Sequence record: MK327929.1
Source: Escherichia phage D5505
Length of the DNA: 64,000 bases
Strand: one strand, 5' to 3'
In this document: positions 2,448 through 62,888 of the stretch, one piece after another
Numbering within the stretch: the first letter of the stretch is position 1
Layout of the letters: the number at the start of each line of letters is the position of its first letter
Program-made: the position numbers and the translations under genes
The notes under the pieces: generated by a model
What the model was told of the DNA's origin: nothing
Databases searched by the model: none
The model's input: the letters and a program-made list of their open reading frames with translations, nothing else

Positions 2448-4267
2448 TACTGGCTCATCCATTCTTTACGAAGGTCAGCATTATCTCCCATGAGCATTTC
2501 AAAAAGCTCTTTCCAGTTCTCAGGAAGTTTAACAACATCATATACTGGGTTTTGAATCATCTCACGATATTCAGATTTTTCCAAAGAGCCAAGTCCTTTA
2601 ATATAACGGATGCTATGTTTAGGTAGAGCATCTTTGGCACTCTCATATTCAGCGACTGTATAAAACCATTCTTGTTTTTTACCAATCTGAGCGATGATTA
2701 CAGGAGTTTTGACAAAACGAATTCGTCCTTGCTCAAACAATTCTGGCCAATTACTAAAAAATCCAAGCAGAGAAGGATAAATGCTTCCTAGACCATCATG
2801 GTCAGCATCAGTCATAATAGCAATATTATGATAATTCAAGTTTTCAGCTTTTTCACCGAGAACTAATCCAGTGATTGCGCAAATATCAAACAGTTCTTTG
2901 TTTTTAAGCATGTCAGCATATGACATACCCCAACTGTTGAGAACTTTACCACGTAATGGATAACCACCGTGAAGTTCTTTATCACGAACATCAATAAGAT
3001 ATCCGATAGCCGAATCACCCTCAGTCAAGAAAAGAGTAGTATCAGCATCTTTACCACAAAGATTCGCTTTAATATGTTTATGAACCTTAGCTTTAGAAGC
3101 CTTTTTAGCTGCTTTAGTTTCTGCTGCTTTTTCTGCCGCTAATTTACGAGCCAAAGCAGCTTCAATAATCGGCATTAGAATTGCTTCATTATTTAGAATA
3201 GCACGTGAAATCTTTTTAGCATCAAGTTGAATATGACTACGGATTTCACCAAATGGAGAAGTCAAACGCTCTTTAGTTTGAGAATCAAATCGCATGTTTT
3301 TCATATCACGGACAAACATAACGATAGTCAAACATTCTTTAACGCGTGCTTTAGTCACATCAATTTTGAACTTACGTTTGATTTGTGGAATAAGGTCTTC
3401 ACAAATATCATCCATAACACAGTCAATGTGATGGCCACCATTCTTAGTGTGAATGTTATTCACATAAGTTAATTGACGAAAACCATCCGGTGAACGACCA
3501 ACCGCAATAGAGCAATTTTCTTGTTCTTGAACGATAGCATGCTCATCATATTGGCGTGCATATTTCTTAAAATTGCCCTGAACCTTTTTACCATTAAAGG
3601 TAAATTGAATATCAGGATAAACTACTGCAAGTGTCTGGAGACGATCTAGTGTAATGTCAAGATAAACTTGGGACAGCTCATTAGTTTCAAATGACATAAA
3701 ATCAGGAATGAAAGTAACGCGAGTTCCTTTCCATTTTCCTGGAATAGTTTCCCATGATTTATTTTCCATGCCATTTGAACAACGAACTACAATATTATTT
3801 TGACCATCACCAGTTTCACCGACAAACATCACAGAAAAAATGTTTGTCAAACTAGAACCAACACCATTCATACCACCGGTGACGCGTTCTTTATCATCAC
3901 CGAAGTTACCACCTGCTTTTGGAATAGTCCAGGCAGCAACAGGACCAGGAATTTCTTCACCAGTAGGTGTTTTGACCATCGCTTGTGGAATACCGCGACC
4001 GTTATCTTCAACTGTTACTTGATTGTTTTTAATAGTAACATTAATTTTATTTGCGAATTTAAACTTAGTACGAATACCTTCATCTACTGAGTTATCGATA
4101 ATTTCATCAATAAGCTTAACAAGACCAGGTACATACTGAACACTTTCCCATTTACCAAACAGAAAGCGCTCATGCATTTCATTAGCAGAAGAGCCAATAT
4201 ACATGCCGCTACGCTTTTTGATATGTTCAATATCGCTCAGAATTTTAATTTCATTCTTAATCATCAC
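2447..4267 (-). CDS. 39: DNA topoisomerase II large subunit, continuous gp39 (T4 gp39 plus gp60 equivalent in one ORF)
   Basis: 606-aa uninterrupted ORF, sequence recognisable as T-even gp39; T4 splits this into 39 and 60. Confidence 0.9.
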   Translation of the reverse strand: MMIKNEIKILSDIEHIKKRSGMYIGSSANEMHERFLFGKWESVQYVPGLVKLIDEIIDNSVDEGIRTKFKFANKINVTIKNNQVTVEDNGRGIPQAMVKTPTGEEIPGPVAAWTIPKAGGNFGDDKERVTGGMNGVGSSLTNIFSVMFVGETGDGQNNIVVRCSNGMENKSWETIPGKWKGTRVTFIPDFMSFETNELSQVYLDITLDRLQTLAVVYPDIQFTFNGKKVQGNFKKYARQYDEHAIVQEQENCSIAVGRSPDGFRQLTYVNNIHTKNGGHHIDCVMDDICEDLIPQIKRKFKIDVTKARVKECLTIVMFVRDMKNMRFDSQTKERLTSPFGEIRSHIQLDAKKISRAILNNEAILMPIIEAALARKLAAEKAAETKAAKKASKAKVHKHIKANLCGKDADTTLFLTEGDSAIGYLIDVRDKELHGGYPLRGKVLNSWGMSYADMLKNKELFDICAITGLVLGEKAENLNYHNIAIMTDADHDGLGSIYPSLLGFFSNWPELFEQGRIRFVKTPVIIAQIGKKQEWFYTVAEYESAKDALPKHSIRYIKGLGSLEKSEYREMIQNPVYDVVKLPENWKELFEMLMGDNADLRKEWMSQ

Positions 4268-59743: not shown

Positions 59744-60064
59744 TTATTCTTTAAATCTAATCAATTTATTCATAGACTTTGAAACTTCTGCACGAACCTC
59801 ATGTAAGTTTTTAAGCTGTTCAAGACGTTGCTCATAGTAAGCAATTTCATCTTCTTCGAGGCAGTCCTGTGAATCTTCTTTAAGATAACGTGCATAGTCC
59901 TGGAAAGCTTTACGGACTACTTCCTGGAAATCATCAAGACTTTGAATTTTCTTAGAAGCAATAGATACACGACGAGGGGCAGTATAATACTCATAACCAA
60001 ACCCTGCGCTTAATTGAGCCATTAATATTTTTCCTCTGGTTGGAACACAGCACGACAAGCCCAC
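59744..60064 (-). CDS. hypothetical protein
   Basis: 106-aa ORF. Confidence 0.45.
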
Positions 60065-60324
60065 ATACTAGCTTCTTTGAGTTTCGTTTTAGCAATAGTT
60101 AACTGATCTAGGCTTTCAGCATAATTCTTTGCGAATTCGTAGTCTTCACAATTATCTAGTGCTTCCCAGAATTCATCATATAAAGCATCAAAGATAAGTC
60201 CTAAACGAACTTCAGCGTCTTTGATAGCATTCACTTTATCGATTTTCTCTTCAGTGTGCGGCTTATAACCTTTAATATCTTCAATCATATTTGACTTCCT
60301 CGCCCGTTCCCAAATCATATTCAA
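60022..60324 (-). CDS. hypothetical protein
   Basis: 100-aa ORF. Confidence 0.45.
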
Positions 60325-60502
60325 CTAAACGAATAGGTTCATGAATGCCATATCCCTGAACAGAAATTTCTGTCGTAGGATAAATTCCACTAATATCACC
60401 CATATTCCACGCTTCATTAAATTGCTGTTCGCCTGAATTACTAAACCATTCTGCGAAAGCATTTAACACATCTTTAGAACCTTCAATAATTATCTTTGCC
60501 AT
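60281..60502 (-). CDS. hypothetical small protein
   Basis: 73-aa ORF. Confidence 0.4.
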   Translation of the reverse strand: MAKIIIEGSKDVLNAFAEWFSNSGEQQFNEAWNMGDISGIYPTTEISVQGYGIHEPIRLVEYDLGTGEEVKYD

Positions 60503-60864
60503 TACAAGCTCTCAGTAAAGGTACGAGCGATAACGTCGCGCTGCTGTTCCGGAGTCAGAGAGTTAAAGCGAACTGCATAACCGGATACACGGATGGTCAG
60601 CTGCGGATATTTTTCCGGATGCTTAACTGCATCTTCCAGAGTTTCACGACGCAGAACGTTAACGTTCAGGTGTTGACCACCTTCAATTTTAACTGTAGGC
60701 TGTGGTTCAATTTCAATTTCACGGGTGTGCAAACCGTAGAAAATTTCTGGGTCTACAAAAGAGTCCTCTTTAAAGGTTTTAGAAACAATAATTCGTGCTT
60801 GAATACCATCTTCAAAATAAATAGTACCTTTATGCGTGCCTTCAAGAATTTGATATGCTTTCAT
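60502..60864 (-). CDS. autonomous glycyl radical cofactor (GrcA/YfiD-like)
   Basis: 120-aa ORF; C-terminal about 60 residues (EGGQHLNVN...RVSGYAVRF...TESL) match E. coli GrcA as I recall it; visibly GC-richer DNA than surroundings. Confidence 0.8.
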
Positions 60865-60870
60865 ATAACC

Positions 60871-61251
60871 TCAATTAGAAAATAAATTTATCCAAGACTG
60901 TTCTTTAATTAAAAATGGCTCAGAATCATATGCCATTAAACTTTGAGTAATTAATCCTTTAAATGGTCCATCAATAAATTCCATGGTAAAATATGGAATT
61001 TTATTCATTAATCTTGCATTAGGAGCAGTGCACAAAACTCTGCATCCTTTGAATACACCTTTTTGTAATTTGTATTGCTTGGGATAAAATTCGCTCAAGA
61101 CGTTGTTATTTGCCAAAATTTCAAAATGATTCACCAATTTATTTTTAATAGTTTTTGGCGAAAAATAAAGATATTCGAAAAGTTGCGTATCTGTCATCAT
61201 TGCATTCCAATTACGAAAAACTGCGGACGAGTAATACCGCCAATGCAGCAT
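60871..61251 (-). CDS. hypothetical protein
   Basis: 126-aa ORF. Confidence 0.45.
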   Translation of the reverse strand: MLHWRYYSSAVFRNWNAMMTDTQLFEYLYFSPKTIKNKLVNHFEILANNNVLSEFYPKQYKLQKGVFKGCRVLCTAPNARLMNKIPYFTMEFIDGPFKGLITQSLMAYDSEPFLIKEQSWINLFSN

Positions 61252-61881: not shown

Positions 61882-62298
61882 TTAAATGTAAATATTTTTG
61901 CCGTAATACTTATACCAGTGTGGCTTCATTAAAATTTTTTCATCGAGTCGTTGTTGACTCAACTTAATAGCTGATTTGCATGGATTATAATCATTTTTCC
62001 ATTCTACTGGAATATCGCTGATGTCAGGAACTTCAGTATCTTTTATACTGAACCCGCGTTTTAAGCATTCCGTTATAATGTCCGATTGACGCTTTCGCAA
62101 AAATTCTAACTTATCGTAAAAGAAAGTAACATGACCAGAACCTAAAATAAATTTAGAAGATATTTTAAAATCTTTAGCGCGCTTACCGTTTGCCACATGC
62201 TTACGAACTATACCAAAAACACGCGGCAATTCACGGTATTCTGCGATTAAATGTTGATCAGCAAGTTCAGATACTAAAGTCAAATTAATACGAGTCAT
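61882..62298 (-). CDS. denV: endonuclease V (pyrimidine dimer DNA glycosylase)
   Basis: 138-aa ORF recognisable as T4 DenV. Confidence 0.88.
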
Positions 62299-62357
62299 TT
62301 TATCCCTCCAAGTAACTGTGAATATACTATCACAATTCTAGGAGAAAGTAAATAGCT

Positions 62358-62888
<531 letters not shown>

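Follow-up and report, generated by a model that had tools for sequence, protein, structure and literature searches.

Escherichia coli YfiD (GrcA) and the T4 protein Y06I, the product of vs.6, are described as spare parts that are activated by PFL-AE and restore pyruvate formate-lyase (PFL) after its cleavage by O2, according to the summary of Wagner 2001 given in PMC8683613. In that account, O2 cuts PFL at G734, YfiD or Y06I binds the cleaved enzyme, and the radical is installed on the small protein. Residues 61–127 of YfiD have the fold of PFL residues 693–759, and residues 1–60 are disordered, aid both the binding to cleaved PFL and activation, and are dispensable for catalysis (PMC8683613). 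T4 vs.6 carries the GenBank annotation 'autonomous glycyl radical cofactor GrcA', and the Gly_radical Pfam domain was matched in the vs.6 orthologues of all six T4-like genomes compared by Nolan et al. 2006 (PMC1524935). Both the gene and its biochemical role are already known for T4; the first-pass annotation of the DNA analysed here had likewise pointed to Y06I as a described cofactor and to the gene as not new, which agrees with Wagner et al. 2001 as far as that work is summarised in PMC8683613.

Cyanophages carry host-like photosystem genes, psbA and psbD, with patchy %G+C and host–phage intragenic recombination (Zeidner 2005; Sullivan et al. 2006, PMC1484495). Host-to-phage intragenic recombination is a known kind of process, for which cyanophage psbA is the precedent. 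A literature search on host-derived DNA in vs.6 returned biochemical papers and the 2006 comparative note only; Miller 2003 lay outside this coverage and an earlier mention is possible. Here, the vs.6 orthologue of Escherichia phage D5505 is compared with these systems. It is very probably a Tequatrovirus gene of GrcA type in which the 3′ 185 nt were overwritten from E. coli grcA, with an independent repeat of the process in Klebsiella phages.

Material and methods

The window is the whole stretch of DNA that was analysed, 64 000 nt of phage D5505 (MK327929.1), and all coordinates refer to it. The host grcA sample comprised 80 species together with Klebsiella pneumoniae and K. aerogenes chromosomes filed among plasmid records, namely K. 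pneumoniae CP125156.1 (5.37 Mb) and a chromosome fragment of K. aerogenes NCTC10006. In the NCTC10006 grcA (extracted locus 200–583), annotated as a truncated CDS, an A-run contains a 1-nt insertion (alignment column 306), probably a homopolymer sequencing error. Identity and synonymous-site comparisons (pS) were made over a core of 171 nt, gene nt 181–351. For profile–profile alignment with hhalign, the N-terminal 58 residues from T-even-type phages were set against the N-terminal 65 residues of host GrcA.

Results

The vs.6 gene and its setting

The window is a T4-like (Tequatrovirus) segment, and the 8 kb around vs.6 are 97% identical to phages such as YUEEL01. The vs.6 coding sequence, the orthologue of T4 vs.6/Y06I, occupies 60502..60864 on the minus strand and consists of 120 codons and a TAA stop (60502..60504). 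It lies between the vs.7 and vs.5 orthologues on the same strand, in a region collinear with T4 and with a Mosigvirus, and the gene order of the window (vs, vs.1, regB, vs.3 to vs.8, denV, e) is that of the T4 annotation. T4 vs.6 was 96.1% identical in nucleotides to the 5′ half of the window gene and 99.4% identical to its 3′ core, and at least 80% of the window gene was covered in 925 phage records.

A GAGG Shine-Dalgarno sequence (60869..60872, minus strand) stands 4 nt before the vs.6 ATG and overlaps the TGA of the vs.7 orthologue (60871..60873). At the other end, a TAATG overlap (60500..60504, minus strand) leaves one base common to the vs.6 stop and the ATG of the vs.5 orthologue (60281..60502), and the vs.6 and vs.5 orthologues are probably translationally coupled. 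These overlaps at both ends place vs.6 within a tightly coupled phage operon. In a consensus scan, no promoter of its own was found for vs.6 above chance (11 promoter-like sites versus 9.4 expected); an own promoter or terminator was dropped as a candidate, the scan having given no informative signal for either.

Several features of the neighbouring genes were recorded in passing. The vs.5 orthologue (minus strand) encodes 73 aa versus 58 aa in the T4 reference (extracted T4 locus 3382–3558), in which a 1-nt gap about 35 nt into the gene, relative to the window and a Mosigvirus, changes the frame from that point onward. The product of the vs.4 orthologue (60022..60324, minus strand, 100 aa) matched the Pfam Acb2/Tad1 hairpin domain (E = 5.3e-20), a fold found in phage sponges for cyclic-nucleotide immune signals (anti-CBASS/Thoeris). 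At 61882..62852, the lysozyme gene e (62358..62852) comes immediately after denV (61882..62298), without the internal protein genes ipII and ipIII that separate the two in T4.

Vs.6 is a small stand-alone protein (120 aa, 14 kDa) without the PFL catalytic barrel, and its gene stands between phage genes in an overlapping arrangement. The Pfam Gly_radical domain (PF01228) was matched at aa 61–101 (E = 2.6e-18; score 66.9 bits, cut-off 22.2), and the RVSGY glycyl radical motif was read from the sequence at aa 92–96 (60577..60591, minus strand), where the GGT codon of the radical glycine G95 (60580..60582, minus strand) is the counterpart of GrcA G102 and PFL G734. The protein aligned to PDB 6owr (GrcA) and, in PFL, only to the last 63 residues (697–759). 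With the NCBIfam GrcA equivalog model TIGR04365 (InterPro IPR011140), Vs.6 covered profile positions 25–126 of 126 and scored 153.4 bits, under the curated cut-off of 170, whereas E. coli GrcA scored 233.9; the shortfall arises because the N-terminal half has diverged. By this model, Vs.6 classes as a divergent member of the GrcA family and not as a strict equivalog.

A host-identical tract with sharp borders

A match of about 60 C-terminal residues to E. coli GrcA, RVSGY included, had been proposed from the letters of the sequence, and it proved complete, with Vs.6 aa 61–120 identical to GrcA 68–127 at 60/60 positions (BLASTP). The corresponding DNA (60502..60686, minus strand; gene nt 179–363, aa 61–120), which encodes the structured glycyl radical domain, matched grcA at 183/185 positions (98.9%) in all 5426 of the 5426 complete E. 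coli genomes, with a perfect run of 175 nt at 60512..60686. The nucleotide identity to host grcA by which the first-pass annotation had wanted its proposal judged is thus high. The only two differences are synonymous and both fall within the final three codons, and in the pairwise alignment the similarity to host grcA stops exactly at the vs.6 stop codon.

The phage-type 5′ half (60687..60864, minus strand; gene nt 1–178, aa 1–59/60) is AT-rich and encodes a diverged equivalent of the N-terminal region of GrcA. Upstream of the breakpoint, 76/178 positions (43%) matched E. coli grcA, versus 183/185 downstream of it (Fisher 5e-38), and the breakpoint itself, after gene nt 178 (60687|60686), gave a maximum chi-square of 140, a value reached in 0 of 2000 permutations. 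The left junction lies within the conserved sequence that encodes GGQH, and on the right the tract ends at the stop codon; these two points delimit the usable phage–host homology. By comparison with the residue ranges described for YfiD, the host-identical tract (GrcA 68–127) corresponds essentially to the structured radical domain and the phage-specific half to the recognition region, so that the border of the tract is also a protein domain boundary.

Base composition changes at the same place. The tract is the most GC-rich 185-nt stretch in the 64 kb: GC of 60505..60685 was 49.7% against a window mean of 34.4% (s.d. 3.8%, 185-nt windows), and no other stretch reached this value. Within the gene, GC was 0.34 in the 5′ half versus 0.49 in the 3′ tract, and GC3 rose from 0.220 in the 5′ half to 0.443 in the 3′ half, the average for the open reading frames of the window being 0.247. 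Codon choice in the 3′ half is host-like, with CTG used for 5/6 Leu codons and CCG for 3/3 Pro codons versus 9% and 14%, respectively, in the other genes of the phage. The compositional contrast noticed in the first-pass annotation is therefore real and the most extreme in the window, but its borders are 60502..60686 and not, as had been estimated, 60520..60720.

The same junction in other phages

In Klebsiella phages of the genus Jiaodavirus (e.g. phiA85, KP17 and Shinkou), the 5′ half of vs.6 is 72–74% identical to the window and has a GC of 0.35, and the core (GC 0.55–0.57) is 94–97.6% identical to K. pneumoniae grcA and 87% identical to E. coli grcA, the peptide having the Klebsiella LLDAVE signature. 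When K. pneumoniae grcA was compared with phages, 106 records matched at 95–99% identity, all of them starting at the junction, grcA nt 202. The sequences mark the Jiaodavirus patch as a separate event with K. pneumoniae grcA as donor. Between phiA85 and PKO111, both Jiaodavirus, pS was 0.154 in the 5′ half and 0.415 in the core. A K. oxytoca-type donor was considered for PKO111 and not retained; K. pneumoniae, at 89.6% identity to the PKO111 tract, was the closest donor that the collections searched contained.

Between the Tequatrovirus of the window and Mosigvirus, the tract is 97–100% identical, the 5′ half 88% and the flanking genes 61–71%, and pS was 0.33 in the 5′ half versus 0.046 in the core (Fisher 0.001). 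No allele equal to either of two Mosigvirus core variants was present in the 5426 E. coli genomes. Separate donor alleles for these variants were rejected on this count, and their substitutions would instead have arisen after transfer.

Two Krischvirus phages of E. coli, JSE and vB_Eco_SAP (extracted loci 292–708), are 99.6% identical to each other over the first 234 nt of vs.6 and 74% in the core, for which the best host identity was about 80%. The difference between them reads as another swap at the GGQH junction. In Krischvirus and T5-like phages of E. coli, identity of the tracts to E. coli grcA is only 70–76%. The phage collection contained no Salmonella-type tract; all 61 of 61 matches to Salmonella grcA lay at 80–90% identity and belonged mostly to T-even phages of E. 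coli type. A Salmonella-matched tract in Salmonella phages was thereby ruled out among these matches, and matching to the host is not universal.

These comparisons raise the possibility that vs.6 is a standing hot spot for gene conversion from host to phage, where the radical domain is repeatedly re-synchronised with the grcA of the current host; we put this forward tentatively, its chances being a little short of even. At each infection, a host-identical tract of 170–185 nt would find a perfect homologous partner in the fragments of the degraded host chromosome, and the N-terminal half would stay phage-specific. Were this so, a virulent phage gene and a host gene would be undergoing concerted evolution, and recent host use would be recorded in the tract, which is of E. 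coli type in Tequatrovirus and Mosigvirus and of K. pneumoniae type in Jiaodavirus.

Alternatively, conversion from E. coli could have happened once, in one T-even lineage, and been followed by spread among Tequatrovirus and Mosigvirus through recombination between co-infecting phages, with no ongoing re-conversion. T-even phages recombine freely. All of the approximately 640 E. coli T-even phages have the one left junction, at grcA nt 200, their tracts are 0.5–6% off E. coli, as would be expected of divergence after one event, and the lack of E. coli alleles for the Mosigvirus variants fits as well. However, the island of Tequatrovirus–Mosigvirus identity ends where host homology ends (60686 and 60502), between flanks at 61–88%; phage–phage exchange would have no reason to stop at these limits, which favours the host as common donor. 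The separate Klebsiella-donor event, moreover, shows recurrence, and the Jiaodavirus core is more diverged than the 5′ half, as given above. We consider a single conversion with subsequent spread unlikely.

The N-terminal half and the age of the phage gene

The window gene could also be a new chimera, produced by illegitimate capture of the grcA 3′ half and its joining to an unrelated phage open reading frame. Upstream of the junction, nucleotide similarity does not rise above background, and the N-terminal 59 aa of Vs.6, when searched alone against NCBIfam, matched no model; both observations would fit such a capture. Against it, profiles of nine phage and 14 host N-terminal halves aligned with E = 3e-6 and a probability of 88% over 45 collinear columns and shared their end point, with seven residues invariant in the two families (phage/host R24/R30, K29/K35, D34/D41, R48/R55, E49/E56, P56/P63 and V58/V65). 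The BLASTP alignment of Vs.6 with GrcA likewise reaches back to aa 22. The N-terminal half is, on this profile and alignment evidence, a distant GrcA homologue, and fusion to an unrelated N-terminus was ruled out by the profile–profile homology.

Orthologues with a phage-like 3′ half also speak against a capture. The Karamvirus orthologue was 77% identical to the window over the 5′ half and 78% over the core, the core GC being 0.42, and vs.6 of the Enterobacter Karamvirus vB_VIPECLOM01 (extracted locus 401–763) was at most 81% identical to any sampled host grcA; this gene probably represents the unconverted ancestral state in Tevenvirinae. Phage-like 3′ halves are found in orthologues from Aeromonas and Vibrio phages too, and Jiaodavirus uses the same junction with a different donor. 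Capture of a host segment by an unrelated frame is therefore very improbable.

GrcA-like genes of vs.6 type were present in approximately 1590 phage records, including T5-like, Aeromonas and Vibrio phages. This distribution, the N-terminal homology and the orthologues above indicate that vs.6 is an old resident of T4-like phages in which only the 3′ half is recent host DNA. In T5-like phages and Aeromonas phage 31 (extracted loci 221–688, 48–688 and 126–685), the GrcA-like gene adjoins phage tRNA genes, with tRNA-Met and tRNA-Ile directly upstream, unlike the T-even context. The vs.6 homologue of Morganella phage vB_Mm5 (extracted locus 37–690) is annotated as an open reading frame of 217 aa, which implies either that the protein is extended by about 90 residues at its N terminus or that the start was mis-called.

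Donor, selection and direction of transfer

Over the core, the window matched E. coli at 171/171 positions; the corresponding identities were 98.8% for another Escherichia species, 92.4% for Citrobacter amalonaticus and approximately 84% for Salmonella. These values indicate the E. coli lineage as the donor. The enterobacterial acquisition put forward in the first-pass annotation is thus upheld and narrowed, to the E. coli lineage and to the 3′ half of the gene only. The paralogues pflB and tdcE were rejected as donors, grcA being the best match in every E. coli genome; pflB and tdcE were only 76–81% identical to the related Klebsiella-phage tract.

A different view of the same identity would be one ancient acquisition of the whole of grcA by an ancestor of T4-like phages, the C-terminal domain having since been frozen by purifying selection and codon preference. 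The radical domain forms the functional core, its protein sequence is highly conserved in all hosts and phages, and vs.6 is widespread in T4-like phages. Yet phage and E. coli differ at 0 of about 43 synonymous sites in the core (pS = 0), whereas core pS was 0.30 versus C. amalonaticus, which encodes the identical peptide, and 0.58 versus Salmonella (a range given as 30–58% for identical-peptide hosts). Selection at the protein level cannot explain identity of this kind, and purifying selection was ruled out as its source. The rise in identity from 43% to 99% within a few bases, the step in GC3 from 0.22 to 0.44 at the same point, and the Klebsiella-type tract that stands in its place in Klebsiella phages also count against an ancient acquisition, which is extremely improbable.

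The divergence of E. coli grcA from other enterobacterial grcA genes is similar in both halves. Transfer from host to phage is indicated because the tract has host composition and E. coli grcA is evenly diverged, as a vertically inherited gene would be. That host reads were merged into a phage contig by faulty assembly or contamination, as a short host-identical stretch in an AT-rich phage genome might suggest, has a negligible probability, since hundreds of phage genomes from independent sequencing, among them the T4 reference, T2, RB32 and RB69, have the same tract and junction, and the tract is in frame, completes a conserved open reading frame and ends at the phage-specific overlap with the next gene.

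Discussion

The simplest history starts from a phage homologue of long standing, the 3′ half of which was exchanged for host DNA through homologous recombination with grcA. Of the crossovers, one would have taken place within the conserved GGQH-coding sequence and the second close to where the reading frame ends, and judging by its near identity to grcA the host tract is almost unchanged since transfer. The event is best described as gene conversion of an existing phage gene rather than as capture of a new module.

By analogy with its T4 orthologue Y06I, the window Vs.6 is assigned the function of a glycyl radical cofactor for cleaved PFL. The host radical-SAM activase PflA would abstract hydrogen from G95 in the RVSGY loop, and Vs.6 would dock onto host PFL that had been cut by oxygen at G734 and stand in for the lost C-terminal radical domain, so that flux from pyruvate to acetyl-CoA and formate would continue in the infected cell. 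A reason for the phage to supply the protein may lie in the shut-off of host expression by T4, after which no new GrcA or PFL would be made, and in a continued dependence of the phage on fermentative energy in low-oxygen habitats.

What is added here is the overwriting of part of a virulent phage gene by host DNA, repeated with a different donor in Klebsiella phages; vs.6 is a very clean and probably recurrent case of host-to-phage gene conversion in a model phage. If conversion is recurrent, T4 and E. coli with a short, synonymously marked tract would make up a tractable system in which to measure exchange between a lytic phage and its host, it could be asked if the spare part must match the PFL and PflA of the host, and recent host history would be readable from phage genomes. 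The idea of phage replacement of a damage-prone host part, taken from cyanophage psbA, would be extended to anaerobic gut metabolism.

Of the known systems, T4 Vs.6 (Y06I) is the closest, with the same position in the order vs.8-vs.7-vs.6-vs.5, the same length of 120 aa, and the same mosaic and left junction. It differs at aa 73 (H in T4, R in the window), in the final three codons (GAA AGT TTG in T4, GAG AGC TTG in the window, a synonymous change) and in the core, which matches E. coli at 170/171 positions in T4 and at 171/171 in the window. Jiaodavirus vs.6 is the same gene with the same length and junction, and again has a phage-type 5′ half and a host-like, GC-rich core, but its donor is K. 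pneumoniae, LLDAVE replaces LEDAVK, and it has a phage-specific tail, TEAL.

With E. coli GrcA (YfiD), the phage protein shares the C-terminal 60 residues, near-identical DNA in that part, its small stand-alone form and a homologous N-terminal region, and the presumed partners, PflA and cleaved PflB, are the same. It departs from GrcA in the N-terminal region, where aligned residues are approximately 31% identical and the phage protein is seven residues shorter, and in its setting, vs.6 being coupled to phage genes in a phage operon and host grcA standing at the ung-grcA locus.

Cyanophage psbA and psbD resemble vs.6 as phage copies of a damage-prone host component, with segments of host-like composition and supported intragenic recombination. 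In vs.6, by contrast, the host-like DNA is one tract with sharp borders, in which 175 nt match a named donor species perfectly; the tract coincides with a domain boundary, the direction of transfer is clear, from host to phage, and the process concerned is anaerobic fermentation in enterobacteria and not photosynthesis.
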